A stretch of 64,000 bases of DNA from Spirochaetia bacterium. GTDB taxonomy: Bacteria > Spirochaetota > Spirochaetia > DSM-2461. The DNA lies in contig CAXXIA010000002.1 of NCBI GenBank assembly GCA_963666985.2, forward strand, positions 1,376,001-1,440,000. Direction: 5' to 3'. The notes under the pieces were generated by a model, which was given only the letters and a program-made list of their open reading frames with translations, ran no database searches and had not been told where the DNA came from. A program made the position numbers and the translations under genes. Below, piece by piece: positions 11,274-28,978 of the stretch. The stretch's first letter is position 1. Each line of letters opens with the position of its first letter.

Positions 11274-12139
11274 TTGAGCACCTTCTTCACGTAATAAAGA
11301 ATAAAACCGACAAGCAGGGCAAATTGAAGAATCACCAGCGCCGAACCCTGTCCAAGTTCGGCAACTCCGACAAACGCTTTGAAATACGTATAAACCGAAA
11401 GAACCTTTACGTTATCGGTCAAAAGATAAATATCTTCAAACTTGTTGAAATTCCAAATCACCCGAAGCAGCACGATGGAACCCATCACAAAATACAATTC
11501 CGGCATTGTAATATACCGGAACTTCTGCCATCCTCCGGCGCCGTCCACGTCGGCCGCTTCGTAGAGATTCCTGTCTATGGCCTGAAGCCTGGAAAGAAGC
11601 ATCAAATACGTAAAGGGAAAATTCTTCCAGATACTGAAAATAATAGCCACCCATAGAGCCGACTCGGGATTGCCGATCAGATTAAAACGCTGATCGAAAA
11701 GCCCCAGCCGTTCAACCGTGATATCAATAAAAAGGCCGTTCACCGGATCAAAGAAAAATTTCCAGGCGTATACAACGGAAAAAACAGGCGCAACATACGG
11801 CAGCAGAATCAAACTGCGCACAAACCCTCTCAGCGGGAACTTTCTGTTCATCACCAGAGCCACACCCAGGCCCACGAGAGTCGTCCCGATCGTGGTTCCC
11901 GTTACGTATACAAAAGTTACCAGAACCGCTCTCCAAAACGAGCCGTCGGTAACGATGTTCCGGTAATTTTCCAGTCCGATGAAGGTATCCGGCTCCATCA
12001 GAGACACTTTGAAAAAACTGGAGAAAATATTGGTAAGAATTGGATAAAGAATGAGGCTGAGGATAATAATCACCGAAGGCGCGATTAATCCCCATCCCAA
12101 TACCGATTCACGCTGCTGAAGATTCAGTTTTGTACTCAT
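11267..12139 (-). CDS. Carbohydrate ABC transporter permease (MalF/YcjO-like)
   Basis: FIGLENY, WKNFPF, LQAID..LYEAADVDGA. Confidence 0.9.
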   Translation of the reverse strand: MSTKLNLQQRESVLGWGLIAPSVIIILSLILYPILTNIFSSFFKVSLMEPDTFIGLENYRNIVTDGSFWRAVLVTFVYVTGTTIGTTLVGLGVALVMNRKFPLRGFVRSLILLPYVAPVFSVVYAWKFFFDPVNGLFIDITVERLGLFDQRFNLIGNPESALWVAIIFSIWKNFPFTYLMLLSRLQAIDRNLYEAADVDGAGGWQKFRYITMPELYFVMGSIVLLRVIWNFNKFEDIYLLTDNVKVLSVYTYFKAFVGVAELGQGSALVILQFALLVGFILYYVKKVLKW

Positions 12140-12168
12140 GACTCCGCCTGCCGCTTTAAAAATGAGAA

Positions 12169-12205
12169 AATCCCGGAAGCCGGCTTAAATCCGACTCCCG
12201 GGATT
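12169..12205 (-). terminator. Hairpin/terminator between the sugar-binding protein gene and permeases
   Basis: AATCCCGG..CCGGGATT stem followed by a T-rich tract on the minus strand. Confidence 0.6.
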
Positions 12206-12212
12206 GGGTTCT

Positions 12213-13583: not shown

Positions 13584-13655
13584 GATTTTCTCCTTTAGCG
13601 CGTGATTGTTTTTCAATTATTTTCATGCCGATTTTTTTTCGGCACAACTTCAACC

Positions 13656-13675
13656 TGGTACCGGTTTGGTACCGG
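13656..13675. promoter_or_regulatory. Candidate response-regulator site (TGGTACCGG direct repeat, 11-bp period)
   Basis: TGGTACCGG at 13656-13664 and 13667-13675, between the regulator and the sugar-binding protein gene. Confidence 0.5.
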
Positions 13676-13700
13676 CCGAGGAATCATCCGGCTTGCTTTA

Positions 13701-14369
13701 TTAATGATTCAGAAGGTGCTGACAGAAATCCTTGAGTCTGGAATCTCGAGCCGCCTTCATAACACCGATCCGCTCGTGGATTTCCAACTTATGATAGATA
13801 TGGCTGATATGATTTTTCACCGTTTGTTCCGATAAATATAATTTCTCCGCGATGGAAGAATTTTCATATCCTCGGGACATCAGGAATAAAACTTCCCGTT
13901 CCCGGCTGCTGAGTTTCTCAATGGGGAAACTCCTCTCTTCTGCGGAAAAAGAAGCTTTCTCCACAAGATGAGAAACAACATCGGGAGAAAGCTGTACGGT
14001 ACCGGCGAGCACATTCCGAATAGACATGATGAGAACCGCGGATGGAATATTTTTCAGAAGATATCCCGCCGCTCCATGAGCCAGAGCATCATGAACATAT
14101 TCATCGTCGTCAAAGGTGGTAAGAACCAAAATTGCCATATCGGGTGCCGATTCATGAATAAGACGCGTGGCTTCCACACCGTCCATAACCGGCATACGGA
14201 TGTCCATTAAAACCAAATCGGGCCGATGTTCCAAAGCCAAACGCACCGCTTCTTCACCGTTTTCCGCTATGGCGACAACTTCCAGGTCGGGATTCTGCTG
14301 CTCAAGGACGGTTTTCAGATTCTCAACAAAAAGCCTCTGATCGTCGGCCAGCAGAATACGTATGGACAT
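13701..14369 (-). CDS. NarL/LuxR family response regulator
   Basis: LLADD, DLVLMDIRMPVMDG, LTTFDD, GYLLK; C-terminal LSSREREVL..TVKNHI HTH. Confidence 0.95.
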   Translation of the reverse strand: MSIRILLADDQRLFVENLKTVLEQQNPDLEVVAIAENGEEAVRLALEHRPDLVLMDIRMPVMDGVEATRLIHESAPDMAILVLTTFDDDEYVHDALAHGAAGYLLKNIPSAVLIMSIRNVLAGTVQLSPDVVSHLVEKASFSAEERSFPIEKLSSREREVLFLMSRGYENSSIAEKLYLSEQTVKNHISHIYHKLEIHERIGVMKAARDSRLKDFCQHLLNH

Positions 14370-14374
14370 TTTCT

Positions 14375-15583
14375 CTATTCCTCTTTCGGCAAAGGCAGCC
14401 AAGCCCGGACTTCAAATCCGTCCGGACAGGGACCGAATTCCACCTCGCCGTTCAAAGCGCCGACCCGTTCCCTCATACCGGTGATTCCCAAACCTTCCAT
14501 CACTTCTCCGCCGCCTCTTCCATTATCACGGATAATCAGCCTGAGCACATCCTTATCATGCCGAAGATAAATCATTATTTCGGTAGCCATGCCGTGGCGG
14601 AAAGCGTTCGTCATCCCCTCCTGCACCAATCTGTAAACCGTCTTTTCCACAATAATCGGCCAGTTTGAGGGAACATTGCCGTAATCGGCACAAACACGAA
14701 TCCCGGTGACATCGCCGAAGGCCTTTACCAACCTCTGAATCGCCGAAATTCCCGAAGCCGCGGAAATTTCCCGTGTCCGAAGCTGTCTCATGGCCATTCG
14801 GGTCTGCTCAAGGCAAAGGTCGGCTTCTTCCACGGACTGTCGAATCAATTCAACGGTTTCATCAGGATTGTTATTCATCCGAAGCGTCGCCGCCTCAAGC
14901 ATCACGCGGATATTGGTTAAGGAATACCCGACGGTATCATGGATTTCCCTCGAAATTCGGCGTCTCTCTTCGGCAATCGAATCGCCCCGGACTTCTTGGG
15001 CGTAATGCTGGTATCCGAGATTTACTTCGGCCAGCCGGGAAACGGCCAAATCCAGCCGATCCACAGTGCCTCGCCATCGGGTTTCTCCATCCAATGCCCG
15101 GCGCAGCATCTGAGCCAAAACAATCGCAGGCAGCACCAACGCGGCAAAAACAATAAATTCTCCCGGATTCCAGCCGGAGACGGGAACGCCGAAAACACTT
15201 CGGTCCGGAATTACGGCAATCAACGCCGCTGAAAGGGTTAAGGCAATAATAATTCCGCCCCAAACCGTGCTTTGCCGAAAACCGGTTTCCTGTATAACGG
15301 CCAATACAAAAAGAACCGGTATATACGGATCTCCCGGAACGGCATAACAGTACAAATAGACGACCATCAGACGCAGAAGCAAAGTAAACCTGGAAATTTC
15401 AACGCCGAAGAACCCGCCGAAAATGGCTAAAAAGGCGGCGAATCCCAACAGAAATCGATATTGCCAGACAAATCGCTCAAGAAAAGGTATTTTTTCAACA
15501 ATTCCGGGAATCGACTTCCAAATCACCCAGTAGAGAAACAATGAAACGGCCGCGGCGGCAATACGGCTGTGTGATTTCACCAT
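14375..15583 (-). CDS. Membrane sensor histidine kinase (HisKA_3)
   Basis: N-terminal TM helices; EERRRISREIHDTVG, YRLVQEGMTNAFRH, DNGRG, GLGITGMRERV. Confidence 0.93.
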   Translation of the reverse strand: MVKSHSRIAAAAVSLFLYWVIWKSIPGIVEKIPFLERFVWQYRFLLGFAAFLAIFGGFFGVEISRFTLLLRLMVVYLYCYAVPGDPYIPVLFVLAVIQETGFRQSTVWGGIIIALTLSAALIAVIPDRSVFGVPVSGWNPGEFIVFAALVLPAIVLAQMLRRALDGETRWRGTVDRLDLAVSRLAEVNLGYQHYAQEVRGDSIAEERRRISREIHDTVGYSLTNIRVMLEAATLRMNNNPDETVELIRQSVEEADLCLEQTRMAMRQLRTREISAASGISAIQRLVKAFGDVTGIRVCADYGNVPSNWPIIVEKTVYRLVQEGMTNAFRHGMATEIMIYLRHDKDVLRLIIRDNGRGGGEVMEGLGITGMRERVGALNGEVEFGPCPDGFEVRAWLPLPKEE

Positions 15584-15604
15584 GCCGAACGCTCCGAAAA
15601 AAAA

Positions 15605-17485
15605 TCATTGGCCAAGCAGCGCCAAACTGAACCAGGGCACGTAAGTAATCAGGAGCACGGCCACCAGCAGGACGACCAAGAAGGGCCAAACCTGACGATA
15701 AATACGCGGCATCGGTTCTTCGAACGTATAACTGGCAAGGAATAAATTCATTCCCACAGGCGGCGTCAGGTAACCCAGCTGAAGATTGGCAAGAAAGATA
15801 ATTCCCAACTGAACCGGATGAACTCCGTAAAGCTCGCCTAATGGGATGATGAGCGGAGCAACCACCAGAATGGCCGAATAAATATCCATCAGAGTACCTG
15901 TAATCAGCAGCGCCAGATTCAAAAGAATCAAAAAGACGAAGCGGGACGAAACGTGATTGCGGAAGAACTCGGTCAGCATCATCGGCACCTGGGCGTCGAC
16001 AATGTAATAACTCAGTCCCTTGGCCATGGCCAGAATCACCAGAACGCCGCCGATAACGGGCACGCCCCGGCGCAAAACCCTCAAGATAAGTCCCAAATTC
16101 AACTCTCCGGTTACCAGAGTCAAAACGAGGACATACACCACGGCCAAAGCCGCCGTTTCCACGATGTTCGTCAAACCCGTGAAGTAGGAGACTAAAAGCA
16201 CAACCGGAAGAAGCAAATCGCCCGCCGCTCCCTTGGTCGCGGAAACCAATTCCTTCCAGTTAAAGGGAACTCTTTCTTTTTTGTTCCGCAGGGCCCGCAC
16301 GATGCCCATTCCCGAAAGCACCAATACCAGAAGAATCCCCGGCATAAGGCCGCCGAGAAACATATCCAAAATACTGATCTGCGCCGTCACGCCGTACATA
16401 ATGATGGGCAGCGCCGGAGGGAAAAGCAGACCGACGCTTCCGGATGAGGTGATCAGACCGCGGGAAAAATCTTTTCCATACTGATTACTTTCCACCAGAA
16501 CGGATGCCAATAATCCTCCGAGTGCGAGGATTGTTACGCCCGAAGCGCCCGTGAACGTCGTAAAATACGCACAGGCCACCACCGCCACCACCGCAAGACC
16601 GCCGGGAAGCGATCCCAAGAACGCCTGAAAAAAGCGGACAAGCCTTTTCCCGGACGAACATTCGGAGAGCAGATAACCGGTTACCGTAAACAGAGGAATC
16701 GCGGGGATCATGTTTCCGGAAAGCAGATTATACGCCTCATTGGGCATGGATTCCAAAGCACCCCAATTTCCGGCGAACAGGAGAAGTGCCGTGCCGCCGA
16801 GCATCAGGTAAATGGGCAGGCCGCGGACACCCAGAAAAATCAGCAGAATAATGAGCGGCCAGCGCAGCCAGGAAAAAACCATGTACCAGCCGTCCACCGT
16901 ATCGAAAAAGAAGAACGGCAGACCCGGAACGGCCATACCCAGCAAATTCACAACGGAAGGCCAGGAAAGCAGCAGGCCGATAAAAAGTCCCGGCACAAGC
17001 CAGCCGGAAGGTTTTTGATGAGGACGCCAAAGGGAACGGACGGACATGGAAAGATATCCGAAAGGCAGAATAATCAGCACCAATCGGAGCGGAAAAATAC
17101 CGACACTCTCGCCCGGCGCGAATCCCAGTACCAGAAACGACGCCGAAGCCACGGCAAAGGCCATGTTGACCGCGCCTGATGATACGTCTTTAACACCGTC
17201 CACGATTTTCCAAAAACGCTTCGTCGGCGGTATGGAAGAACTGAGCGAAAGATGAACGCCCTCGCGGGATGCGGCAATGCCGCCCACCCATGCAACCCAG
17301 ACAACAATGTGCTGGAGGAATCCCGCGGACCAGACCAGTCCCGATCCGGTGAGTTTTCTCAGAATAATTTCCACAACAGGTACAACGGCCAGTCCGAGGA
17401 GAAAAACTCCCGCGAGAAGATCCTCTATCAAGGCCATTCGGTTGTCCCGGAGGCTCATTGTCTTTTCCGGCATAGGCATCACCAA
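15605..17485 (-). CDS. TRAP transporter fused small/large permease (DctQM, TatQM-like)
   Basis: AIPLF, FTTFTGASG, GSVGLLFPPA, GYLTPPVGMNLF; 626 aa with an N-terminal DctQ-like segment. Confidence 0.92.
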   Translation of the reverse strand: MVMPMPEKTMSLRDNRMALIEDLLAGVFLLGLAVVPVVEIILRKLTGSGLVWSAGFLQHIVVWVAWVGGIAASREGVHLSLSSSIPPTKRFWKIVDGVKDVSSGAVNMAFAVASASFLVLGFAPGESVGIFPLRLVLIILPFGYLSMSVRSLWRPHQKPSGWLVPGLFIGLLLSWPSVVNLLGMAVPGLPFFFFDTVDGWYMVFSWLRWPLIILLIFLGVRGLPIYLMLGGTALLLFAGNWGALESMPNEAYNLLSGNMIPAIPLFTVTGYLLSECSSGKRLVRFFQAFLGSLPGGLAVVAVVACAYFTTFTGASGVTILALGGLLASVLVESNQYGKDFSRGLITSSGSVGLLFPPALPIIMYGVTAQISILDMFLGGLMPGILLVLVLSGMGIVRALRNKKERVPFNWKELVSATKGAAGDLLLPVVLLVSYFTGLTNIVETAALAVVYVLVLTLVTGELNLGLILRVLRRGVPVIGGVLVILAMAKGLSYYIVDAQVPMMLTEFFRNHVSSRFVFLILLNLALLITGTLMDIYSAILVVAPLIIPLGELYGVHPVQLGIIFLANLQLGYLTPPVGMNLFLASYTFEEPMPRIYRQVWPFLVVLLVAVLLITYVPWFSLALLGQ

Positions 17486-17737
17486 GTCAAAAGAACGGAA
17501 TATAGTAACATTCTATCTCAGTAAGACATTGAATGGGCCTTTTTCTCAAGACTTTCCGAATTGAAGTTTATAAAGGAAGGCCGAAATAGAGATTGATTCG
17601 ACAAAAAATATAATTTCAGCCGCCGATGAGGTCGTCAAATCGGGAGAAAGCCGGAAGCAAAAGAATCAAACGGCCACCGATACCCACTCGTAGAGCGGAG
17701 TGAAATCGGCGGCGTGATTTTCACCCGCCCGAGACAA

Positions 17738-19126
17738 TTAAAACGTATCGATATAACCCGTTTCGGCTTTTACCCGTTCCAGTTCACTCCGCAGCATCGG
17801 AAGAAGTTCATCTCCTTCGGGCGTACCGTAGAGATTGTGATACTGTCCGGGATCTTCCAACAGATCAAATATTTCCGGCCGCTTCTTATTATTCTGATAA
17901 GTGATATAGATATACCTATCGGTCCTCACCGCGGTGATTCCCGGAATGGGAATCGGATAAACCGGAAAATGCTCGTACAGCCAAGCGCTCCTCGTCGTCA
18001 TGGGACGGTCTTGAAGAATCGGCAGAACGCTCACCCCCTGCATGTTCTCCGGCACGGGAAGGCCGACAAGATCGAGCAGAGTCGGAGCCAGATCGATATT
18101 CAGCAGCATGTCGTCAACACGCCTTCCCGGATTATCAATGATTCCCGGTCCCCAGGCAAAAAAGGGAATCCTGATCGATTCCTCATAGGCGGACCGTTTA
18201 TCGTACAAACCGTGCTCTCCGAAATAATGGCCGTTATCCCCGGCGTAAATCACGAGAGTATTCTCATCCATTCCGGACTCTTTCAGGCTTTCAATGATTC
18301 GTCCCACTTGCTCGTCAAGAGAAAGAATGGTTTCGCAGTAGCGCTGATACAGGAACGGAAGCGGCGCCGGGGCCCCGACAAAAAGATTATCCCGGGTAAT
18401 CGTAAGCAGCGGATCGGCCTCCTGGGGAAGCTGTAAATCCGTATCATCGAACGTTCCGCGCAGATGTTTCGGCGGCAGGAAACCGAAATGAGCCGCTTTG
18501 TGCGAAAGGTAGAGACAGAACGGCTGGGAACGTTCTTTTTCAATGAACTCGAGCGCGAAATCGGTCAGATCCTCGGTAATGTATTTTCCGGGCCTCTCTT
18601 CTTCCGCTCCGTCGATAATAAGCGGACAGTTTTCATAAACGCCTTGTCCGCCTTGTGCCGTAAACGTGATGAAACGATCAATCCCGTCCACCTCGGGAAC
18701 CCCTTCTCCGGGCATATGCCATTTACCGATGAACGCCGTTTCATATCCGTTATCATGAAGAATCTCCAGAAAACTCGTATTTTGCTCTTCATCCCAGATG
18801 GTGTGATTGGTCGTTACGCCGTGAATGTGAGGATATTCTCCGGTTAAAAAACTGGCTCTGGAGGGACTGCAGAGCGAGGTTGTGCAGAACGAGTTTGAAA
18901 AAAGAATCCCACCTTCCGCGAGCGCATCAAGATTCGGTGTGTCGATAAACGGATGATTCATGCAGCCGAACGCGTCCCACCGGTGATCGTCGGCCAGAAT
19001 GAAAATGATATTGGGCCGGGGTTTAATTCTTTCATCTTCGGCCTTTTTTTCGGCCGACTGGGTAAACGCCGCGGTTGCCGTTGAAAACAAAATAACCGCA
19101 CTGACCATAAATTGTCTTATGTTCAT
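17738..19126 (-). CDS. Cys-type (formylglycine-dependent) sulfatase, probably exported
   Basis: PNIIFILADDHR, LCSPSRASFLTG (CxPxR), GKWHM, GDNG..GEHGLYDKR. Signal-peptide-like N-terminus MNIRQFMVSAVILFSTATAAF. Confidence 0.92.
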   Translation of the reverse strand: MNIRQFMVSAVILFSTATAAFTQSAEKKAEDERIKPRPNIIFILADDHRWDAFGCMNHPFIDTPNLDALAEGGILFSNSFCTTSLCSPSRASFLTGEYPHIHGVTTNHTIWDEEQNTSFLEILHDNGYETAFIGKWHMPGEGVPEVDGIDRFITFTAQGGQGVYENCPLIIDGAEEERPGKYITEDLTDFALEFIEKERSQPFCLYLSHKAAHFGFLPPKHLRGTFDDTDLQLPQEADPLLTITRDNLFVGAPAPLPFLYQRYCETILSLDEQVGRIIESLKESGMDENTLVIYAGDNGHYFGEHGLYDKRSAYEESIRIPFFAWGPGIIDNPGRRVDDMLLNIDLAPTLLDLVGLPVPENMQGVSVLPILQDRPMTTRSAWLYEHFPVYPIPIPGITAVRTDRYIYITYQNNKKRPEIFDLLEDPGQYHNLYGTPEGDELLPMLRSELERVKAETGYIDTF

Positions 19127-19137
19127 GGAATACTCCG

Positions 19138-19704
19138 CTATCCGAACAGTTTGATATACAAATCGAGAAACCAGAAATAGTAGAAATGCCCGAGTCTCCA
19201 GAAGAAAATCGTAAACAAAGCGATTCCTATTAAAAGAAAAACGGATTCTCTTCTGAAAAGGATTCTTGCGGCGGCGTCGCCGGAACGCTTTTTCTTTACG
19301 GAATGACAGACAATCGAAGCAAGTCCGATTTCCAGGAAAGCGAAGACAACCGGCGCCAAGATACAGTGATGAATCAGCAGAAGAAGAACTTCTCCGACTG
19401 AGAAAATGCCGAAGAATGACGATAAAATCATGAAACTCTTGAGAACCGGAGCCGTCAGTGAAGCAATGATTCTTTCTCCGAAACCGGCGCCCTTGAAAAA
19501 ACCGAAGATGTAAATAATGAGCGGTGAAATGAAGCTGCAGAGAATCATGCCGATCAATCCGCTCCAAACGGCAACATCGTTCCAAAAAGGATTTCCAACG
19601 GCGACGGACCGATTGTATATCAGTGTGAAAAGTACTGTTCCGATAACCGCCGCCGAAGAGGGAATCAGCGAACGGTTTATGATTTCTTTGGTTACTCTCT
19701 GCAC
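19138..19704 (-). CDS. Hypothetical integral membrane protein
   Basis: 188 aa with about 5 hydrophobic segments; AAGGAG RBS upstream; ends 11 nt before the sulfatase start. Confidence 0.7.
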   Translation of the reverse strand: MQRVTKEIINRSLIPSSAAVIGTVLFTLIYNRSVAVGNPFWNDVAVWSGLIGMILCSFISPLIIYIFGFFKGAGFGERIIASLTAPVLKSFMILSSFFGIFSVGEVLLLLIHHCILAPVVFAFLEIGLASIVCHSVKKKRSGDAAARILFRRESVFLLIGIALFTIFFWRLGHFYYFWFLDLYIKLFG

Positions 19705-19760
19705 AAGCTCCTCCTTAGAGAGTCTTTTTGTAATGCTGCTTACCGAATTACTTACCGAAT

Positions 19761-19908
19761 ATCCGCGCGATTCAGCTGTGTGCGCTCGCTATTTTGCTGT
19801 GTAAAACAGCTGTATGCGTTCGCTAATTCGCTTCGCAAATCAGCTGTGCGGACTCGCGGCTCGGCTTTGCCAAACCGCTGTTGCCCGCTAATTCGCCGCG
19901 CGATTCCG
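19761..19908. repeat. Degenerate 34-bp tandem repeat (~4.5 units)
   Basis: CAGCTGT/CCGCTGT cores at 19773, 19807, 19841 and 19875 (exact 34-bp period), most followed by CGC..TT(C/T)GC. Confidence 0.65.
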
Positions 19909-19922
19909 TCGACGGCCCGGAT

Positions 19923-20750
19923 TTAGGGATACACGTATCCGGCCTTCGGCGGCAGTGAATTGTAAACACGTTCTATATCCATCCTTCCCGACCTTCCAAA
20001 GGGTGAGAAACCGAATCCTCCAAAACGTCCTTTCACAAGAGTTCCCACCATATCGAAATTAAGACCGTTTATCGCGACGGCCGCCCCTTTCTTCAAATCC
20101 TTCGCTTTCGCGGCATACGGTTTCGCGGGAATCACAATGGTTCCCGAATCCGAAGCCTGCGCTTCAATAACCGGCAAAATTCGGGGAACTCCATCTTCGG
20201 AAACCCAGGAGAGGAATTTCAGGGTTTGAAGACCCTTCATGAGTTTCTCCGCCCAGCTCTTCAATATCCGGGACTTCCTCTTGTTTCTGTAGAACTGTTT
20301 CCCAATCATGTTGAGGGCGGCCCTGAACACAATCGCACCCATTTTTAAATCTTCGCCTTCGGAGATTTCAATCAGATCGAAATAGTGCACCGTATGAACT
20401 CCGAAATATGTGTTGTAGCGGAACAGAGGCTTCTTGTTGTACATGTCGAATTCCTCTCCCTCGGTTCGGCAATGGGTCCATCGGGCGGTTCCCGTCCAAA
20501 AACGCCTGTCCATGCTCATAATAAGAAAACCGACTTCCGGACGGATCCGCATGAAATCCTTGCTGAGCCCCTCGGTAAACTGACCCATAACCAACTGCCG
20601 CGGCGAAGACGCCTGAAGACTGGAGAGCATGGTGATGTGAGGCCCGCCCTCGTCGTCGAGGGTGGCGATCAGCCCGACTTTGTACGTCGATTTAAAACGC
20701 TCAATCATTTCATTGGTCATTGTTTCCATCACTGTTTCCTTTTGATTCAT
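19923..20750 (-). CDS. Tandem pyridoxamine-5'-phosphate-oxidase-like (split-barrel, putative FMN-binding) protein
   Basis: Two repeats of the PNPOx-like start: LIATLDDEGGPHIT and FLSWVSEDGVPRIL. Confidence 0.7.
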   Translation of the reverse strand: MNQKETVMETMTNEMIERFKSTYKVGLIATLDDEGGPHITMLSSLQASSPRQLVMGQFTEGLSKDFMRIRPEVGFLIMSMDRRFWTGTARWTHCRTEGEEFDMYNKKPLFRYNTYFGVHTVHYFDLIEISEGEDLKMGAIVFRAALNMIGKQFYRNKRKSRILKSWAEKLMKGLQTLKFLSWVSEDGVPRILPVIEAQASDSGTIVIPAKPYAAKAKDLKKGAAVAINGLNFDMVGTLVKGRFGGFGFSPFGRSGRMDIERVYNSLPPKAGYVYP

Positions 20751-21685
20751 GATCCTGTCAAACCGGTCGCGAAGATCCTCTCGGGTGCGAGGCCCGAGTT
20801 AACGGCGGTTCGTCTGAACGATTCCATCCGGGCCGCTTCAACCAGCGGGGTGTCCGAATATTTCCACTCTTTTCCAAATCGCCGGTACTTCGCGCCGCAA
20901 AGATTATTGAACGCACACAATTCCCAGCGTTCTACCTCACCCTGCAGATCGTTTTTGATAAACTTGGAGATCGCCGCGATATTGCCCTCGGAATCGGTAG
21001 CTCCGGGAATCACCGGCGTCCGAATCCACAGGGCGGCTCCCGTTTCTTTCAGCCTTCCGGTAAGTTTCTTCAGATTCTCGAAAATCAGTCCGTTGTCCGC
21101 ACCCGTATGGGCCTTATGCTCGGCCGAGTCGAAAATCTTCATGTCGTACAGAAAAAGATCGGCATACGGAAGCACCGCTTCAAAAGCCGAGAACGAACAG
21201 AGTCCGCAGGTATCCACGGCCACATGAATTCCCTCCAGCTTTAAAAGACGGCAAACCTCAACGGTGAAATCGGCCTGAAACAGCGCTTCTCCGCCGGAGA
21301 GGGTAATCCCTCCCTGCTCGCCGAAATAGGCCCGATCCTTAATCAATTCCTTAACCAAAGCCTCGGGCGTATACCGTTCTCCTTTGGTCCGAAACGCGAG
21401 CGCGGGACAATTCTCACTGCATCGAAGACAGAGCCGGCACCGTTCCGCATCCCGTACGATGCCGCCCTCGCCCATGCTCAGCGCGCCTTCGGGGCAGTCC
21501 TTCACGCAAAGACCGCATCCGATGCACCGGTCCGGAAAATATTCCAGTTCCACCTTCGGCGAGATGCTTTCGGGATTGTGGCACCATTCGCAGCGCAGCG
21601 GGCAGCCTTTCAGAAAGACCGTCGTGCGCAAACCCGGTCCGTCTTCGGTGGACATCCGCTGGATGTCCAGAACAAGTCCCTCCAT
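20747..21685 (-). CDS. Glycyl-radical enzyme activating enzyme (radical SAM, ferredoxin insert)
   Basis: DGPGLRTTVFLKGCPLRCEWCHNPES; two CxxCxxCxxxC motifs; GITLSGGE; IRTPVIPG. Confidence 0.95.
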   Translation of the reverse strand: MEGLVLDIQRMSTEDGPGLRTTVFLKGCPLRCEWCHNPESISPKVELEYFPDRCIGCGLCVKDCPEGALSMGEGGIVRDAERCRLCLRCSENCPALAFRTKGERYTPEALVKELIKDRAYFGEQGGITLSGGEALFQADFTVEVCRLLKLEGIHVAVDTCGLCSFSAFEAVLPYADLFLYDMKIFDSAEHKAHTGADNGLIFENLKKLTGRLKETGAALWIRTPVIPGATDSEGNIAAISKFIKNDLQGEVERWELCAFNNLCGAKYRRFGKEWKYSDTPLVEAARMESFRRTAVNSGLAPERIFATGLTGS

Positions 21686-21686
21686 G

Positions 21687-24359
21687 CTACATGTCCCGAT
21701 GGCTTTCGCGCGCGATAATTTCGTCCTGGAGTTCCCGGCCGATACTGCTGAAATACGCGTTGTACCCCGTCACTCGGACAAGAAGATTCGGGAAATCCTT
21801 GGGGTGTTCCTGCGCTTCTTTCAACATTTCCGCATCGAGAAGATTCACCTGAAGAGCCGTGCCGCCGTTCTCGATATAGCCGCGCAGGAAGGCCTTGAAC
21901 TTCTCTTTCGCGGCGGGATTGCGAAGCAGCGACGTGTTGAAGGTAATCGTATGGCTGGCTCCGTTCGGCAGGCTGTTGAAGTAGCCCTCGTAATCACCGG
22001 CCGTCCCAGACGCAGCAGCTGCGGCATCCCCGAAAGCTCCGGCATCCCCAGATGCGTTCGCAGCAGCGGAAGAAGACACGGGGTTGGCCTGAACGGCGGC
22101 TTTATCCGCGAATCCGGGCGCGGCCGATGGAAGTTCCGCGAGGTTCACCGCACCCGCTCGGCCCGCCGCGGCCCTGCCCCCGAGCACTTTGCCCACAGAA
22201 TTGCTGTTGGCCGTCGGTCCGTTGATATCGGCTCCGTTGCTGGGACAAATGGCGTTGGAAAGAAACTGCCCCTTGCTTCGGCCGTCCGGGCTCGCGGGCA
22301 AGATGAATCCGTCGCCCACCCAGTAATTCCAGCTCAGCATACCCGGACGGTAAATCGCGTTCGTGGCCGCGGTTTTGTATTTCCATACTTCCGAAGTCCA
22401 GGTATCCATCACCTTCAGCGCCAACTCATCCGCTTCATCATCGTCGCGGCCGTATTTGGGCGCCTGATTCTTCGCGCGGGCCTGCAGAATTTCATGACCT
22501 TCCCAGTTGTCCTTCAGGGCCGCGACGAGTTCTTCGAGACTGCAGATCTTCTGATCGTAAACAAGGTATTTCACCGCCAGCAGCGAATCGACGGTCGTGG
22601 CGTAGGTAACCGCCTCAACCGTAACGAAGTTCAGTTCCGCGCCGCCGCGGGTTACATCGCGCGCCTTGTCGACGCAGCCCTTTACAAGCAGCGAAAGATA
22701 CGGAGTCGGGCTGAAGTCGGCGCGGATCGATTCGCTTTTCTCATAAACCTCGACCATTTTCGCGATGATGTATTTGGTCTGGAGAACATAGGCATCCCAG
22801 AACTTCTCCCAGCTGTCGAGCTGGGCAAGAGATCCGGTAACCGGACCGTCCTGTTCGATCTTTTCCGCCTTTCCGGTCATTTCATCAACGAAAGGTAGAA
22901 GATCCCGACCGTTGCCCAGCACCAGCTCAACGGCTTTCAGCAGGTTCAGGTTGCAGTTGACCGTATTGGAACGGTCGTTTCCCACCATCGTATTCTCAAG
23001 ACAGCCGACCGAAGCGTAATCAAAGACATTGTCCTTATTAATTAAGTCCTCCACACCGGCCATTTCGGCCTCGCGCAGCATGCCCGCCATGGACCTCTCG
23101 TCGAAGTTCAGCAGGAACGGAGCCCCCTGACTGGAAAGTATCATCTCAACAACCCTGTCCAGCAGATCCTCAGGACTGTTGCGGTGCAGCCTGACATTCG
23201 GCTTGGGTTCGAGAATCGGGCTCATCTCATCGATGACTTCAAGCAGCAGCCATGTCGTGTCGTTGGTCATATCCGCGCCGCCGGGGCCCATTCCCGAGAG
23301 ATTGAAAAGCTGCCCGAAGCCCGCTGTAATCCCTTGATTTCCGCCCACCCGAATCTGGGCGTCGTACACGGTGTTGCAGTGGAACCAGAAGCATCCGAGG
23401 ATTTCTTTCAGGAACTCCCGGTCCGCTCCTTCGGCGATCGATCTTTGATAAAAAGGATCGAGAATCTGATCCAGTCTGCCGAAGGACACTCCCGGACCGG
23501 GATAATTCTCATCGGCCATTACAAGCATATGGGTGAGCCACAGCGATTGGATCGCTTCATGGAACGTTTCGGCCCCCCGCCATGGAACCTTATCCATGAT
23601 TCGGGCCATTTCATGAAGCTCCTGTTTCCTGAACGAATCGTTTGCCGATTCGGCTTCCTTCCTGCAGATCCAGCTGTATTTCTCAGCCAATTCACGCGGT
23701 ATCGTGCAGGCCGTCATCATGGCCCGAAGCTGCGCGCCTTCGTCCCCGCTCTTTTCCGATGCGCTTAACGCCGCGTATTTCTTTTCCAGGCGGGCATAGA
23801 CGGCGGAAAAGCCGTCTTTCAGAATCACTTCGTAATGAGGAATAAGATGGCCGTTGGTGGCCCCCGCGTTTCCGTATCCATGGTTATGCATCCGAAGAAC
23901 CGAGGGTCTCACCCCGTTTTTTCCATACATCCGTTTATCGCGCCGTTTCGATTCCGATTTGGTCCAGCAGCCGGAAGTAAAGAGATTAAAATTCGATCCG
24001 CACAGAAGATCGCCGGGGAGAATGACTTTCTCCATGTGATTCAGCACGACTTCTTTCAGAAAAACGGCGCGGCGTTCGGCAATCGACTGTGTATAAAAGT
24101 CCTTCCCCATGGGAACATCGACCGCCGCCTGATAGGAAGACGCCCGGAAAGTTCCGTGGAAAGCGTAGGTTTCGGGGACAATCAAATAGCTGTTCTCATC
24201 ATAGAGAATGTCCCAGGGAGTTCCGGTGGAATAACAGGCGAACTCATTATTCCAGTCGCGCTCCACCCCCATGAAATAATAATCCCTTAAGGCTTTCACC
24301 CTCGGAGACAACTCTCCCGGTTCTTTGATGTTGAATTTTCTTTGGGCCGATTCCGCCAT
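21687..24359 (-). CDS. Glycyl radical enzyme of unassigned class (PFL2/dehydratase-like fold)
   Basis: SFGRLDQ, single-Cys loop SVGCLE, PKYG.DD, ASPDGR, C-terminal Gly loop LLVRVTGYNAYF. Confidence 0.93.
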   Translation of the reverse strand: MAESAQRKFNIKEPGELSPRVKALRDYYFMGVERDWNNEFACYSTGTPWDILYDENSYLIVPETYAFHGTFRASSYQAAVDVPMGKDFYTQSIAERRAVFLKEVVLNHMEKVILPGDLLCGSNFNLFTSGCWTKSESKRRDKRMYGKNGVRPSVLRMHNHGYGNAGATNGHLIPHYEVILKDGFSAVYARLEKKYAALSASEKSGDEGAQLRAMMTACTIPRELAEKYSWICRKEAESANDSFRKQELHEMARIMDKVPWRGAETFHEAIQSLWLTHMLVMADENYPGPGVSFGRLDQILDPFYQRSIAEGADREFLKEILGCFWFHCNTVYDAQIRVGGNQGITAGFGQLFNLSGMGPGGADMTNDTTWLLLEVIDEMSPILEPKPNVRLHRNSPEDLLDRVVEMILSSQGAPFLLNFDERSMAGMLREAEMAGVEDLINKDNVFDYASVGCLENTMVGNDRSNTVNCNLNLLKAVELVLGNGRDLLPFVDEMTGKAEKIEQDGPVTGSLAQLDSWEKFWDAYVLQTKYIIAKMVEVYEKSESIRADFSPTPYLSLLVKGCVDKARDVTRGGAELNFVTVEAVTYATTVDSLLAVKYLVYDQKICSLEELVAALKDNWEGHEILQARAKNQAPKYGRDDDEADELALKVMDTWTSEVWKYKTAATNAIYRPGMLSWNYWVGDGFILPASPDGRSKGQFLSNAICPSNGADINGPTANSNSVGKVLGGRAAAGRAGAVNLAELPSAAPGFADKAAVQANPVSSSAAANASGDAGAFGDAAAAASGTAGDYEGYFNSLPNGASHTITFNTSLLRNPAAKEKFKAFLRGYIENGGTALQVNLLDAEMLKEAQEHPKDFPNLLVRVTGYNAYFSSIGRELQDEIIARESHRDM

Positions 24360-24377
24360 ATCCTTAACCTCCTCGTA

Positions 24378-25073
24378 TTACGATTTTCCCGCTTCTTTCA
24401 GTATTTTTTCCCCGTGTTCGAGAATCTCAGACATAATTTCCGAACTCATCCGGGCATCACCCGCTTTTATCGCGTCGATCAATTTCTCATGCCGAACCGC
24501 AACACTTCGCGGATCGGGGATGGTGGAATAGAACGTCTCAATCAGCGTCTTCTGCAGCGGTTCGAATGATTTGAGAATAAGAGGATAAAGAGGATTCTTC
24601 GATGCCACGGCTACGGTATGGTGAAATGAGAAATCAAGTTCACATCGTTCTTCCCTTACCGTCGATTCACATTCTTCCCGCAGAATACGTTCCAGAAATT
24701 CGATATCGTCTTCGGTTCTCTTTTTTGCGGCCAGCGAAGCGGTTTCCACTTCTATAAGACGGCGGCTCTGTATAAGAGCATCAAGAAGATCCGGAGCGAG
24801 ATTGCCGCCGTTGTAATGCATTATCGATTCAAGAACCGACAGCGTACCTTCGGTCCGGTAATCGGTTACGATATATCCCTTGCGCGGTTTGGTTGTGATA
24901 AAACCGAGCGCCGCGAGTTCGCCAAGTCCGGCATGGACTACCGTACGGCTAATATTAAGTTCTTCAACCAGTTCGCGCTCGGCGGGCAGTCTGCCTCCGC
25001 AGACCAATTCCCCCGAAATAATCCTGCGCTCGATTTCACGGATGAATTTTTCCTTCCGACTGACTTTGCTCAC
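24378..25073 (-). CDS. GntR family, FadR subfamily regulator
   Basis: RLPAERELVEELNISRTVV; FCD domain SRRLIE..AA, DFSFHH..ASKN, RHEKLIDAI. Confidence 0.93.
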   Translation of the reverse strand: MSKVSRKEKFIREIERRIISGELVCGGRLPAERELVEELNISRTVVHAGLGELAALGFITTKPRKGYIVTDYRTEGTLSVLESIMHYNGGNLAPDLLDALIQSRRLIEVETASLAAKKRTEDDIEFLERILREECESTVREERCELDFSFHHTVAVASKNPLYPLILKSFEPLQKTLIETFYSTIPDPRSVAVRHEKLIDAIKAGDARMSSEIMSEILEHGEKILKEAGKS

Positions 25074-25081
25074 GCATTCTC

Positions 25082-25131
25082 CTGTGGTACTACCACAGAA
25101 TGACTATAAAGCGCTTATTTCCGGTTTGCAA
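25082..25131 (-). promoter_or_regulatory. Promoter (TTGCAA-N17-TATAGT) and palindromic FadR-type operator CTGTGGTA-C-TACCACAG
   Basis: -35 at 25131-25126 and -10 at 25108-25103. Perfect 8-1-8 palindrome at 25082-25098 with a TGGT-N3-ACCA core, overlapping the RBS. Confidence 0.8.
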
Positions 25132-25245
25132 GAATTATTTTTGCAAGGGATGTTCCTGCGGCCGTTCTTCCATCAATTGATAAGATCACGGCTCTTTTGT
25201 AAAATAATTAATTATTATAGTGATAAAAAATTACGAGGTGTTCCC

Positions 25246-25899
25246 GTGAATCGGTATGTTGAAAAATATAGAGATCTTGTTGACTTCCTGGCTGACTTCT
25301 TGGGAGATGATACGGAGGTGGTCCTCCATGATATGACCGATCTGGACAGCTCCGTGGTAGCCATAAGAAACGGACATATCAGCGGAAGAAAAATAGGCGC
25401 ACCCGCAACGGATTTGGTCCTGAAAATCATTAAAAGTAAAAAAGGAAGCGACCAGAATTTTCTGGCCAACTACAAAGGAACGTCAAAAAGCGGAGCCGCA
25501 TTAAAATCCGCAACATATTTTATCAGAGATGATAAAGGGCAAATCGTCGGTACGATGTGCATCAATATGAACATCGATAAATTCATGCAGTTTAAAACGC
25601 ATCTGGATAGATTCATAGGATTTGATGATGATCGGGAAAAAGCAAATCCTGTCTCCGAAAATCTCAGTCTCTCCGCCGCCGAACTTACATTGGACAGCAT
25701 CAATAAGGTTGTCCGTGCTCTGGGAATACCGCCGGCGAGGATGGATCAGAATGAAAAACTGAAAATCGTCAATGAACTGAATGAAATGGGTATTTTCCTT
25801 ATAAAGGGAGCCGTAAGTCAGGTGGCTTCGGAACTGAAAGCTTCGGAAGCCACGATATACAGATATCTCGGCAAACTGAAGAAGAATGGAATTGAATAA
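25246..25899 (+). CDS. YheO/DauR-like PAS + HTH transcriptional regulator
   Basis: EVVLHD, IRNGHISGRKIGAP.TD, LKSATYFI, GTMCIN, GIFLIKGAV, SEATIYRYL. GTG start after GAGGTG. Confidence 0.9.
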   Translation: MNRYVEKYRDLVDFLADFLGDDTEVVLHDMTDLDSSVVAIRNGHISGRKIGAPATDLVLKIIKSKKGSDQNFLANYKGTSKSGAALKSATYFIRDDKGQIVGTMCINMNIDKFMQFKTHLDRFIGFDDDREKANPVSENLSLSAAELTLDSINKVVRALGIPPARMDQNEKLKIVNELNEMGIFLIKGAVSQVASELKASEATIYRYLGKLKKNGIE

Positions 25900-25991
25900 G
25901 AACATATCCCTCATCAGTTGATTCGGCACGGTACGGGAACCGCTGAAAGACTCAGTGCAGGATCATGCTTCAGCGTAATAATAATTTTTTA

Positions 25992-26020
25992 TTGACGTAA
26001 TAAAACATTAGCGATATAAA
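25992..26020 (+). promoter_or_regulatory. Sigma70 promoter for ridA-malY-permease (TTGACG-N17-TATAAA)
   Basis: Exact 17-nt spacing in the AT-rich region upstream of ridA. Confidence 0.65.
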
Positions 26021-26068
26021 AATGTGTAGTGGTAATAATGAATTTACCATCAATAAGGAAAATCAAAG

Positions 26069-26449
26069 ATGAAAGAAGTTATAGCGACGAATAATGCTCC
26101 GGCGGCGATCGGCCCCTATTCTCAGGCCATAAAGGCGGGAAGTCTGATTTTTATATCGGGACAATTACCGATTGATCCGAAAACCGGTGAATTCGCGGGT
26201 AATGATATTACCTCTCAGACGGAAATGTCCCTGAAAAATGTCAAAGCCGTTCTCAATGAAGCCGGGTATGAAATGTCGGATGTAATTAAAACAACTGTTT
26301 TTCTTAAAGATATGAACACCTTTTCCGGCATGAATGAAGTGTATGCCGGTTTTTTTAACGAACCATTTCCGGGCAGAGCGGCCGTTGAGGTCGCCAGACT
26401 GCCCAAAGACGCATTGGTGGAAATCGAAGCAATCGCGTACAGGGATTAA
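26069..26449 (+). CDS. ridA: RidA family enamine/imine deaminase
   Basis: [44 protein letters not shown] with the catalytic Arg. Confidence 0.95.
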
Positions 26450-26471
26450 CTCCCGAATACGGAGCAGGCAG

Positions 26472-27650
26472 ATGAAATATGACTTTGATACTGTAATTTC
26501 GCGAAAAGGATCGGGGTGTATAAAGTGGGATGTTAAGGATCTCTTCGGCGTGGATTCCGATGCGGATCTTCTTCCGTTCTGGATAGCGGATCAGGATTTT
26601 CCGGTTCTTCCCGAAATCCAAGAAGCTCTGAGGAAGAGAGTTGATCATCCGATGTACGGATATACCATGCCGTCTTCCGGCAGTGTATCCGCTCTCACCC
26701 AGTGGTATTCCAGACGCCACGGCTGGGAATTTTCCCCTTCCGAGGTTATTTCGGGTATCGGAGTCGTTACGGTTCTCAGCTATGCGATCCGGGCTCTTAC
26801 GGAACCCGGCGACAAGATAGCCCTGTTCTCTCCGGTGTACGATCCTTTTTTCGCTCTTATAAAGAACGGCGGCAGAAGCCTGGTTGATGTTCCCATGGAA
26901 TACCAAGGCGGACAATATACTCCGGATCTTGAGCTCTTTGAAAAAGAGCTGGCCGCGGGAGTAAAGGCTCTGATTCTCTGCAATCCCCACAATCCGGTCG
27001 GCAAGGTCTGGACCCGAGAAGAACTGACGGATATTGCGCATCTCTGCAAGAAATATAACACCTTGATTCTCTCCGATGATGTTCATGGGGATATCGTGAT
27101 GAAGGGTCACAAATATGTCCCGATGGCGTCCGTTACGGAAGCAAGAGACCGACTTGTAACGTTTACGGCAATCAGCAAAACCTTCAATCTCGCCGGACTG
27201 GGCGCTTCGGCAACCATTGTCCAAAATCATGAACTCTTTCAAAAGCTTAACGGCGCTTTAAGAGATGTCTGGCTTTTCGGTCCCAACGTCATGGCTTTCC
27301 CCGCCATGGAGGCCGCATATACCTGCGGTGACGAATGGGTGGATGAGCTGAATGAATACCTTACGGATAATTCCCGGTACGTTTCCGAACAATGCCGAAA
27401 AGATATGCCCGATATAAAGGTTGCCGACCACCAGGGAACGTTCCTTATGTGGCTGGATATGACCTGTTTTGCTCTCTCCAGTGATGAACTCACATCAATA
27501 CTGGCCAAAGAATACGGAATTGCCCTTGGGAATGGGGCTCATTATGGGAAGCAATGTGATGGGTTTATGCGGCTGAATATGGCATGTCCCAGAGAAACAT
27601 TGGAAAAGGGTTTCGAATCGCTTAAGCGTTTCTATAAAAATCGGAGGTAA
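26472..27650 (+). CDS. MalY/PatB family PLP-dependent C-S lyase
   Basis: KW, PFWIADQDF, YGY, LCNPHNPVG, SDDVHGD, SKTFNLAGL, FMRLNMACPR. Confidence 0.92.
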   Translation: MKYDFDTVISRKGSGCIKWDVKDLFGVDSDADLLPFWIADQDFPVLPEIQEALRKRVDHPMYGYTMPSSGSVSALTQWYSRRHGWEFSPSEVISGIGVVTVLSYAIRALTEPGDKIALFSPVYDPFFALIKNGGRSLVDVPMEYQGGQYTPDLELFEKELAAGVKALILCNPHNPVGKVWTREELTDIAHLCKKYNTLILSDDVHGDIVMKGHKYVPMASVTEARDRLVTFTAISKTFNLAGLGASATIVQNHELFQKLNGALRDVWLFGPNVMAFPAMEAAYTCGDEWVDELNEYLTDNSRYVSEQCRKDMPDIKVADHQGTFLMWLDMTCFALSSDELTSILAKEYGIALGNGAHYGKQCDGFMRLNMACPRETLEKGFESLKRFYKNRR

Positions 27651-27658
27651 TAATTAAA

Positions 27659-28978
27659 ATGGCAGAACGGGAACGGAAAACTCTGGGCTTCATCGATTGT
27701 ATGGGAATCGGTATAGGCCAGATTATCGGGTCGGGCGTGATGGTTCTTACCGGAATCGTCGTGGGATTAACGGGACATGGAACACCGCTGGCATTTATCC
27801 TTGCGGCGGTGGCGGTAATCGCAACCATGGTTCCTACGGTGGTGCTTTCATCATCAATTCCGTCGAACGGCGGCGGATACTATTATGTGAAGACTCTGAT
27901 TGGTGAAAAAATCGGCTTTGTATACCTCGGCATGTTTGTTATAACCCAGGTATTAATAGCGACATTTGCCTTGGGCTTCGCAAGCTATCTTGCCGCGATT
28001 ATTCCATCGGTAAATCAGACTCTGGCCGCCGTGGGCATACTGGCTTTGGCGACTATTATCAATATTATAGGCCTGAAAACAGCCGCTTCGGTGCAGAACA
28101 TTATGGTTGCTCTTCTGCTTGTCTCCCTTGGCCTCTTCGTCATCTTCGGTCTTCCGAAGGTTACATGGAGCGAACTCACATTTTCCTCAGCGAACTTGAT
28201 GCCCAATGGTGTAAAAAACTTTCTGGTGGGTATTGCTCTTCTTTCCTTTGCCACCGGAGGAGCCAAATTTCTTGCCGAAACAGGCGGTGAAGTTAGGAAT
28301 CCCGGGAAAACCCTTCCTCTTGCCATGATAATTTCCACCGCCTTGGTAGCCATATTCTATGCACTGATCGGTGTGGTTGCTTGCGGAGTCCTGCCCCTGG
28401 AACAGGTGGCGTTTCAGAATCTGACACTTGTAGCACAAACCATCTTCCCGCCGTGGCTGTTCTTTTTCTTCATTATCGGCGGTGCCCTCTTTGCTCTTGC
28501 AACAACTCTCAACGGAACACTGTCTTGGGTTACACGGGGACTTCAGTTATCCGCCAAGGAAGGATGGCTTCCGGAAGTGTTCGCGAAAGAAAACAAGGGA
28601 GGAGCTCCGGTACTCTTGCTCATTCTCTTCTTTGTCGTCGGGGCGCTGCCCATCGTAACGGGAATGGATACAACCATGATTGCCAGTATGGGAATCGGAC
28701 TTAATATGGTCTGTGTAATTATGGAAATCATCGCCTGCTGGAGACTTCCCAAGTTAAAACCCGCGGAATTTGAAGCCGCCGTCGTCAAACCCAAAAAGAG
28801 TGTTCTTTACGTTCTGCTTGTTCTGGCCATAGCGATTGCTTTCGGCACGTTCCTTGTGAGCCTTGCCGACCTCACATTAAAAGTTTGGCTGGCCATCATC
28901 ATATGGGTCGCTTTGGTTGGGATTTATACCTACTTCAAAGGGAAACAAAGAGATAACGCAGTTCTTGCCGGCGAATAA
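27659..28978 (+). CDS. APC family amino-acid permease
   Basis: About 12 TM segments; GQIIGSG, GGGYYY, EVRNPGKTLP. Confidence 0.9.
   Translation: MAERERKTLGFIDCMGIGIGQIIGSGVMVLTGIVVGLTGHGTPLAFILAAVAVIATMVPTVVLSSSIPSNGGGYYYVKTLIGEKIGFVYLGMFVITQVLIATFALGFASYLAAIIPSVNQTLAAVGILALATIINIIGLKTAASVQNIMVALLLVSLGLFVIFGLPKVTWSELTFSSANLMPNGVKNFLVGIALLSFATGGAKFLAETGGEVRNPGKTLPLAMIISTALVAIFYALIGVVACGVLPLEQVAFQNLTLVAQTIFPPWLFFFFIIGGALFALATTLNGTLSWVTRGLQLSAKEGWLPEVFAKENKGGAPVLLLILFFVVGALPIVTGMDTTMIASMGIGLNMVCVIMEIIACWRLPKLKPAEFEAAVVKPKKSVLYVLLVLAIAIAFGTFLVSLADLTLKVWLAIIIWVALVGIYTYFKGKQRDNAVLAGE

Follow-up and report, generated by a model that had tools for sequence, protein, structure and literature searches.

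A widespread, uncharacterised glycyl radical enzyme cassette encoded with a tandem split-barrel protein

A 64,000-nt stretch of a Spirochaetia genome (assembly GCA_963666985.2, contig CAXXIA010000002.1, positions 1,376,001 to 1,440,000; hereafter the window) carries a gene cassette built around a glycyl radical enzyme (GRE). Six co-oriented open reading frames (ORFs) occupy its minus strand from 17738 to 25073, as a preliminary description made from the sequence alone had claimed. They encode, in 5' to 3' order, a GntR/FadR-family regulator, the GRE, its activase, a tandem split-barrel protein (hereafter the barrel protein), a small membrane protein and a sulfatase (Table 1). The conserved unit comprises the first four: regulator, GRE, activase and barrel protein. 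This cassette is real, widespread and uncharacterised, and it combines a GRE of the eliminase kind with a type of partner that we did not find described.

Table 1. Features of the cassette and its surroundings, in window coordinates
Feature	Position	Strand or placement	Basis
GntR/FadR-family regulator (P0006), predicted autorepressor of the cassette	24378-25073	-	Pfam GntR, FCD and FadR_C above cut-off; subfamily tree
GRE (P0001), 890 aa, uncharacterised clade; His171, Cys453, Glu455, Trp677, Gly865	21687-24359	-	
GRE activase (P0002), radical SAM with two-ferredoxin insert	20747-21685	-	TIGR02494 299.6 bits against a cut-off of 174; two Fer4 stretches
Tandem split-barrel protein (P0003), one predicted flavin mononucleotide (FMN)/phosphate-type site in the first barrel	19923-20750	-	
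Small membrane protein (P0004), no family, accessory, paired with the sulfatase	19138-19704	-	Homologues in loci L005, L101, L139
Sulfatase (P0005), CSPSR motif, signal-peptide-like N-terminus (by eye), ATG start, accessory	17738-19126	-	Pfam Sulfatase, SGSH_C
Candidate sigma70-like promoter, TTGCAA-17-TATAGT	25103-25131	-	Consensus match only; scan total 6 sites against 5.5 by chance
Perfect palindrome TGTGGTA-C-TACCACA, predicted FadR-type operator	25083-25097	between -10 box and GntR start	0/100 shuffles
In-frame Ala-rich low-complexity loop in the GRE, about residues 730-788, length variable	21995-22170	-	
Intergenic interspersed repeat, three degenerate copies, 34-nt spacing	19705-19922	.	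Resembles DNA at 8 further places in the genome

The first four genes are closely packed, separated by 18 nt and 1 nt and then overlapping by 4 nt. The overlap depends on starting the barrel gene at its first ATG; the 265-aa database product begins ten codons later. Between the barrel and membrane genes lie 218 nt filled by the interspersed repeat. One promoter and operator had been placed upstream of all six genes; the palindromic operator survived comparison with shuffled sequence, whereas promoter-like sites occur only at a chance-level count. All six genes have their closest relatives in one Spirochaetia genome. A contig of run X1, which may be the sample that the genome came from, matches 17700–23786 without any difference and with the GRE loop continuous. 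One of run X3, which belongs to another study, has the six genes in the same order and a shorter loop (180 nt replaced by 57 nt).

The GRE belongs to the superfamily of pyruvate formate-lyase (PFL)-like enzymes (PF02901, 398 bits; PF01228, 68.8 bits) and is separate from the characterised classes compared with it. Motifs and profile alignments recovered the Gly loop RVTGY and the single-Cys loop SVGCLE that had been read from the letters. The GCLE loop in place of Cys-Cys, together with 81 bits against 994 for TIGR01255, distinguishes the enzyme from PFL itself. The two-ferredoxin insert of the activase was likewise recovered, and alignment upheld the register in which the strand RPGMLSWNYW had been set against CutC, glycerol dehydratase (GD) and HypD. 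In a profile search over 50%-identity representatives, a small group matched from the N-terminus and a broad field of other GREs matched from about position 160.

Could the enzyme be an outlying form of a known class (GD, propanediol dehydratase (PD), HypD, CutC or HpsG)? Its best matches are HypD, CutC and GD, but it falls below all of 12 NCBIfam cut-offs: 357 bits against 1100 for HypD (NF043068), 299 against 1050 for CutC (TIGR04394), 321–329 against 1000 for HpsG/HpfG, 159 against 1150 for HPAD, and 397 against 678 for TIGR01774, the glycerol/propanediol dehydratase test. Identity is 21–23% to the GD/PD family and 18–25% to the solved GREs listed by Foldseek, which share the ten-stranded barrel fold at a TM-score of about 0.7. 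In a tree of 54 rows, made by a short search without bootstrap and holding no GD, PD, IslA or YbiW member, its clade splits from CutC (P0159), HypD (P0171) and HpsG members with support 100, and the substrate residues of the known classes are not kept. Membership of a known class is thus very remote, and we are nearly certain that the GRE represents a new one; the uncharacterised eliminase-type enzyme of the preliminary description stands. It resembles the GRE eliminases and isomerases GD (1R8W/1R9D), HypD (6VXC), CutC, HpsG (6LON) and YbiW/PflD (8ID7/8ID0) in barrel fold, CxE loop, Gly loop, the His at the GD His164 position and the two-ferredoxin activase. It differs from them in overall identity (20–25%), in an N-terminal 160 residues of its own, in a pocket with YPGPG, Gly349, Asn470 and Trp677, and in a cassette that has a constant split-barrel partner and no microcompartment, transporter or aldehyde dehydrogenase.

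The clade spans at least six phyla of anaerobes. The best 80 of 180 relatives were kept as genome loci, and at 54–78% identity these come from Clostridia, Desulfobacterales, Syntrophaceae, Myxococcota, Anaerolineae, Izemoplasmatales and spirochaetes. The DNA of the low-complexity loop occurs only once in the genome. The loop runs to 59 residues where the other 65 aligned proteins have 1–7, and the predicted structure drops below pLDDT 50 at residues 732–785. Five full-length relatives that group with the clade (P0131, P0134, P0136, P0139, P0173) lack GCLE, four of them also lacking the Gly loop, and may be non-catalytic partners or copies in decay. Some cassettes have another GRE beside them, dissimilar to the first (about 30% identity) and mostly without its own activase, behind the barrel gene in L103, L126 and L284 and before the GRE in L322; in L008 such a gene converges on the cassette and does have its own activase. 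The genome of the window holds five PFL-like GREs in all, two of them 10 kb apart at C2:2.09–2.10 Mb.

The barrel protein is the constant companion of the GRE. It follows the GRE in all 68 GRE-found loci with at least 1.3 kb of downstream sequence, and in a reverse search with the barrel protein, 48 of the 50 loci that offered 1.4 kb or more had the GRE upstream; L087 and L106 lack it, the latter with a transposase upstream. This two-way linkage agrees with the dedicated flavoprotein-like partner proposed at the outset. Of the 80 GRE-found loci, 73 show the activase and 49 the regulator. Eight loci skip the activase, and there the barrel gene still adjoins the GRE; four genomes with activase-less cassettes encode activase homologues elsewhere at 44–45% identity, not shown to be cognate. 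A sister clade (GRE identity 39–49%) repeats the GRE–barrel link in 11 of 12 regions, the twelfth running off its contig; the motifs GH, GCLE and SGTVD are retained in this clade. Because the eight loci with no activase in between and the sister clade both preserve the link, the barrel protein belongs with the GRE rather than with the activase.

These arrangements bear on a second explanation, that the barrel protein serves just to supply the activase with electrons in place of a flavodoxin and is uninformative about GRE chemistry. Activases require a flavodoxin-type donor, according to section 2.2 of a 2026 review of the GRE superfamily (PMC13450708), and the barrel gene usually comes directly after the activase gene. 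Yet three sister-clade loci join the eight in placing the barrel gene after the GRE with no activase between, and no activase–barrel fusion occurs among the loci examined, so we regard a donor-only role as improbable. Apparent activase–barrel and regulator–GRE fusions (L078, L284, L283) proved to be alternative-frame artefacts. The barrel protein is very probably dedicated to the GRE; for its being a physical subunit of the enzyme, we see the chances as evenly balanced.

Neighbour clustering over 160 loci yielded no fifth conserved gene. In line with the earlier reading, neither microcompartment shell nor aldehyde dehydrogenase genes are among the recurring neighbours, and no small Fe-S subunit gene of the benzylsuccinate synthase (BSS) or HPAD type recurs among ORFs of at least 80 aa, the gaps in the window being 18 and 1 nt. 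Individual loci carry additions of their own. At L050:10512-14782 a rhomboid gene, two nucleoside phosphorylase genes and a NUDIX gene are inserted within the cassette; a thiamine pyrophosphokinase gene lies upstream of the sister-clade cassette in L323, L324 and L325, which may be kin; and a linalool dehydratase/isomerase-like gene follows the barrel gene at L002:12023-14059.

The fold of the barrel protein resembles that of flavin-binding proteins. In a model with pLDDT 92, the first barrel matches HupZ (7KPZ; Z 14.7, rmsd 3.0 over 120 residues) and FMN-binding proteins (Z 12–14), and F420/flavin reductases are among its fold neighbours; the Desulfovibrio FMN-binding protein (1AXJ), Swol_0183 (3IN6) and PhdC share the same first-barrel fold. 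Unlike these proteins, to which identity is 15–18%, the window protein fuses two barrels, which are related to each other by profile (E 6e-6), and carries a phosphate-type motif in the first only. Searched against the PDB as a single sequence, the barrel protein gave no match, and a profile gave only weak split-barrel matches; no solved tandem form is among the matches listed, whose fold rows span residues 4–137 only. Invariant residues cluster at His38, Gly61-Ser63-Lys64, RYNxYFG and YNSxPP. Of these, His38, Gly61 and Ser63 align with what we take to be the phosphate-binding segment of HupZ, in a protein whose Pfam PNPOx match (24.7 bits) lies under the cut-off of 28.1. We infer that the barrel protein may bind a flavin and may form a complex with the GRE. 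One atlas cluster of the barrel protein is commonest in Promethearchaeota.

Partner proteins of other kinds are known from GRE systems. BSS, MASS and HPAD resemble the cassette in that the GRE is encoded with a dedicated small partner; section 4.2 of PMC13450708 describes their small subunits as HiPIP- or rubredoxin-like iron proteins known for these three only, whereas the window's cassette encodes a double split barrel of 275 aa as partner and its GRE has a CxE loop and 18–20% identity to theirs. The limonenylsuccinate synthase operon offers a likeness by description: in the portion of PMC12583861 that covers it, LssP is a putative PNPOx-like protein of unclear function expressed from a GRE operon. 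The GRE of that system, in contrast, adds fumarate and belongs to a full beta-oxidation operon.

By alignment, the GRE combines invariant catalytic residues with an unusual predicted pocket. His171, Cys453, Glu455 and Gly865 do not vary across all 66 aligned rows, which include an unrelated second GRE from L008. Positions Gly349, Asn470, Pro289, Gly290, Val467 and Leu675 are small or apolar in 64–65 of the 66 rows, and we take their counterparts in GD, CutC and HypD to be aromatic or polar. The description as more aromatic applies to the RPGMLSWNYW strand only; elsewhere Gly, Asn, Pro and Leu replace aromatic pocket residues. The diol in GD is presumably bound by His281, Ser282, Tyr339, Asp447 and Tyr640, and the window enzyme has Pro289, Gly290, Gly349, Val467 and Leu675 there instead, keeping only the equivalent of His164 (His171). 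Trp677 is new and invariant. HMMER alignments equate His171, Cys453 and Glu455 with His164, Cys433 and Glu435 of GD, whose roles we take from section 5.6 of PMC13450708, and the invariant Cys453-Leu-Glu455 places the enzyme in the eliminase/isomerase class as defined in sections 5.6 and 5.7. IslA, IseG and HpsG anchor sulfonate by two Arg and a Gln (section 5.6.3); the corresponding positions of IslA and HpsG are Ala167, His171 and Gly673 here, and no basic residue occupies the known anion-binding positions in the alignment. The alignments suggest that the pocket is larger and apolar and would accept a neutral substrate with a hydroxyl group.

The membrane protein and the sulfatase are an accessory pair, with a rare but non-random link to the cassette that recurs in distant lineages. 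In the preliminary description all six genes formed one pathway, with the exported sulfatase freeing the GRE substrate, and the downstream genes were to be checked for co-occurrence with GRE orthologues. The barrel gene does co-occur; the membrane–sulfatase pair follows it in only one of 53 GRE-found loci. Among the 51 barrel-found loci that hold enough DNA, two have the membrane gene, both times beside a sulfatase gene: in L139, a distant locus, it comes directly behind the barrel gene, and in L101 it lies at a distance of 5 kb. Across the window's class the sulfatase orthologue occurs in 2 of 201 genomes, both times at the cassette, which amounts to 2 of the 9 barrel-bearing genomes and none of the 192 others; the second genome may be one already counted, so the tallies are not added. 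The membrane protein has no Pfam or NCBIfam match and turned up in none of 60 relatives, and a word-based search, which misses distant forms, gave 2 matches.

A pathway of all six genes can draw on the position of the pair directly behind the barrel gene here, in L005 and in L139, on the two class-wide sulfatase matches and on the order kept in the X3 contig. It has to contend with the lack of the pair in 52 of 53 GRE-found loci and 7 of 9 barrel genomes, with the lack of basic residues just described, and with the repeat-filled 218-nt gap that separates the pair from the core. The evidence does not support substrate supply by the sulfatase as a general role, and we hold the six-gene pathway to be highly improbable; at most the pair may be a local feeder, for example by desulfating a precursor. 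At L005:14318-15493 a radical SAM/SPASM gene, possibly an anaerobic sulfatase maturase, converges on the sulfatase gene; the window's sulfatase gene has none beside it.

The regulator connects the cassette to an operon predicted to act on substituted glycerols. Allowing up to 3 mismatches, the predicted operator precedes the cassette's first gene in 51 of 59 loci that have a GntR gene and in 2 of 48 that do not, against 0–2% of shuffles, and wherever the regulator gene lies downstream the operator stands in front of the GRE (9/9). In a FastTree tree of 59 rows the regulator subfamily forms one clade with support 99, within which cassette regulators fall into separate groups interleaved with the regulators of an operon encoding a GlpA-like trio, an FGGY kinase and a protein like alkyl-dihydroxyacetone-phosphate (DHAP) synthase (AGPS-like). 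The genome of the window has this operon too (L191, C2:618831-626489): its top operator match, at C2:625562, falls between the regulator's closest paralogue and the GlpA-like trio, the kinase and an FAD protein. The FAD protein is closest to alkyl-DHAP synthase (E 1e-61) and keeps the HHH motif as SHHHGVG. Among 30 class-wide regulator loci, 18 adjoin the first gene of the AGPS operon, 1 its kinase, 2 a CrtI-like flavoprotein and 1 the cassette, and 8 are other or uninformative; nine of the 18 were extended, and all nine contain the AGPS-like gene. The two modules are physically joined in L046, where a GlpA-like trio (42% identical) and the cassette flank one operator, with the flavoprotein pair also there.

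Gene content repeats the association. The AGPS-like gene is found in 33 of 201 genomes of the window's class, namely in 7 of the 9 that carry the barrel gene (6 of 8 if the present genome is set aside) and in 26 of the 192 others. In Thermodesulfobacteriota the figures are 10 of 15 and 13 of 236, at cut-offs of E <1e-100 for the barrel protein and E <1e-150 for the AGPS-like protein that were set after seeing the score gaps. The same three functions, a kinase, a glycerol 3-phosphate dehydrogenase and an AGPS-like flavoenzyme with the HHH motif, are found in Pseudomonas PA3026-PA3024 of the GliR regulon, as given in the part of PMC8151288 that treats it; alkyl-DHAP synthase (2UUU, 4BBY) is the known counterpart of the flavoenzyme. 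The AGPS-like operon differs in being GntR-controlled; it lies elsewhere in the genome and bears on the substrate from outside the cassette. Acyl-CoA ligase genes near 9 loci were dropped as evidence, such genes being estimated common in these genomes.

A CrtI-like FAD protein and an FAD/NAD/2Fe-2S reductase form a further module tied to the same regulator subfamily. The pair has no close solved relative and is found in L027, L030, L037, L046, L066, L236, L244, L270-L273, L280 and L326, and it adjoins GRE and barrel genes in rumen Clostridia and in L280 and L326. In the genome of the window it lies at C1:522767-525537, without a strong operator match.

We tentatively read the GRE as a radical C–O lyase that splits a 1-O-substituted glycerol into an alcohol and hydroxyacetone. 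Because a kinase, a glycerol 3-phosphate-type dehydrogenase and an AGPS-like enzyme share its regulator subfamily, C1-substituted glycerols come forward as the substrate class, and because the GRE has the His/Cys/Glu set and a roomy apolar pocket, it could attack the same compounds. On balance a glycerol backbone is slightly favoured; action at C1 is a more doubtful proposition, with somewhat less than an even chance. The activase would install the radical on Gly865; Cys453 would take it over and abstract hydrogen from C2 of the glycerol unit, Glu455 would deprotonate the C2 hydroxyl, His171 would protonate the leaving O–R group, and Cys453 would quench the product radical. Such chemistry would be of the HpsG/YbiW type, with abstraction at C2 and loss of the C1 substituent to give an alcohol and hydroxyacetone; in the passages of PMC13450708 on these enzymes, YbiW and PflD cleave a ring C–O bond and HpsG yields hydroxyacetone. 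We infer the substrate, regiochemistry and product of this scheme. An alkylglycerol left from ether lipids is the candidate substrate, and an S-glyceryl thioether or an aryl ether would be compatible with it. A ketone product would need no aldehyde handling, which fits a cassette with no microcompartment or aldehyde dehydrogenase genes among its recurring neighbours. Genes for SCP2, an aldehyde oxidoreductase and an alcohol dehydrogenase downstream in L139 and L115 also count in favour of this reading. The barrel protein would work with the GRE itself, either as a substrate-delivering or gating subunit or as a coupled flavoenzyme.

Several observations weigh against glycerol-ether cleavage. 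The pocket equivalences come from sequence alignments, residues 339–345 are of low confidence in the model, and His171 fits dehydration equally well. A close AGPS-like orthologue is missing from 2 of 9 and 5 of 15 barrel genomes, and the co-occurrence counts include kin, uncorrected for kinship or lifestyle and with no unrelated-gene control, so that Fisher tests on them overstate the association. The FadR-type operator motif is general: its genome-wide matches in 10 other genomes are at control level, and the scan of these genomes gave no new regulon members. The regulator subfamily also stands beside the CrtI-like flavoprotein pair, a GltD-like enzyme and unrelated genes; in 300 Clostridia it adjoins the cassette once, the flavoprotein pair four times, the GltD-like enzyme three times and unrelated genes twice, with the AGPS-like gene at none of these 10 examined loci. 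Most neighbours across the 160 loci are unrelated to lipids, and the related Pseudomonas operon is described, in the relevant part of PMC8151288, as only predicted to act on glycerolipids and as having no deletion phenotype.

The GD-like route, which His171 would also serve, starts from a substituted glycerol or a long-chain 1,2-diol. Abstraction at C3 and loss of water, as in GD, would remove the C2 hydroxyl and leave an aldehyde, and the barrel protein would be a flavin ene-reductase that removes the enal formed on alkoxy elimination. His171 corresponds to GD His164, which according to PMC13450708, where it treats GD, protonates the leaving hydroxyl; the barrel protein has its conserved site (His38, Gly61-Ser63-Lys64, RYNxYFG, YNSxPP) and reductases among its fold neighbours; and aldehyde:ferredoxin oxidoreductase and iron alcohol dehydrogenase genes follow the cassette in L139 (L139:9912-14224) and L115. 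Against these points stand the lack of any recurring aldehyde-handling or microcompartment gene and the loss of the other residues that we take to bind the diol in GD. We consider this route unlikely, in its overall outcome and in its abstraction at C3 alike.

A substrate with no glycerol backbone is also on the unlikely side, if a little less so. The regulator would then have been recruited separately or would sense a general lipid signal, and the GRE would act on another hydrophobic or aromatic alcohol, possibly flavin- or pterin-like, presented by the barrel protein. The new invariant Trp677 and the aromatic strand are in keeping with this, as are a regulator subfamily that serves at least four different modules, the lack of the regulator in 48 of 109 loci (about half), and the nucleoside phosphorylase and NUDIX genes within the L050 cassette. 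AGPS-like co-occurrence in two phyla, the joining of modules in L046 and glycerol utilisation genes flanking L051, L072 and L079 speak for glycerol instead. Side-chain cleavage of riboflavin or pterin and nucleoside chemistry found no support as separate readings and were merged into this one.

If glycerol-ether cleavage is correct, the reaction would be one not known for the GRE family, and oxygen-free turnover and recycling of ether lipids would gain a named enzyme. There would be consequences for how necromass is turned over and for how stable ether-lipid biomarkers are. In its most far-reaching form, this reading has a widespread anaerobic etherase, made of the GRE and a double split-barrel flavoprotein subunit, cutting the ether bond of glycerol ether lipids in sediments, digesters and the rumen. 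The radical lyase would be one route among several that share a regulator family, the others being the kinase–dehydrogenase–AGPS route and the flavoprotein pair, and no GRE with a flavoprotein as a subunit would have preceded it. We think that whole picture rather unlikely. The regulator link narrows the substrate search to alkyl-, acyl-, aryl- and thio-glycerols. A literature search of mostly open-access text listed no account of this cassette, of a GRE with a split barrel or of a GRE ether lyase, and the accessible text of the 2026 superfamily review (PMC13450708) names no ether lyase for acyclic glycerol ethers.

The genes on either side of the window's cassette are not found beside other cassettes. 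A divergent operon on the plus strand (25240-28978) encodes a YheO-like PAS regulator, a RidA-family protein, a class I/II pyridoxal phosphate enzyme and an amino-acid permease. Downstream on the same strand as the cassette (11267-17485) lie genes for a TRAP DctM-type transporter, a two-component pair and sugar ABC components.

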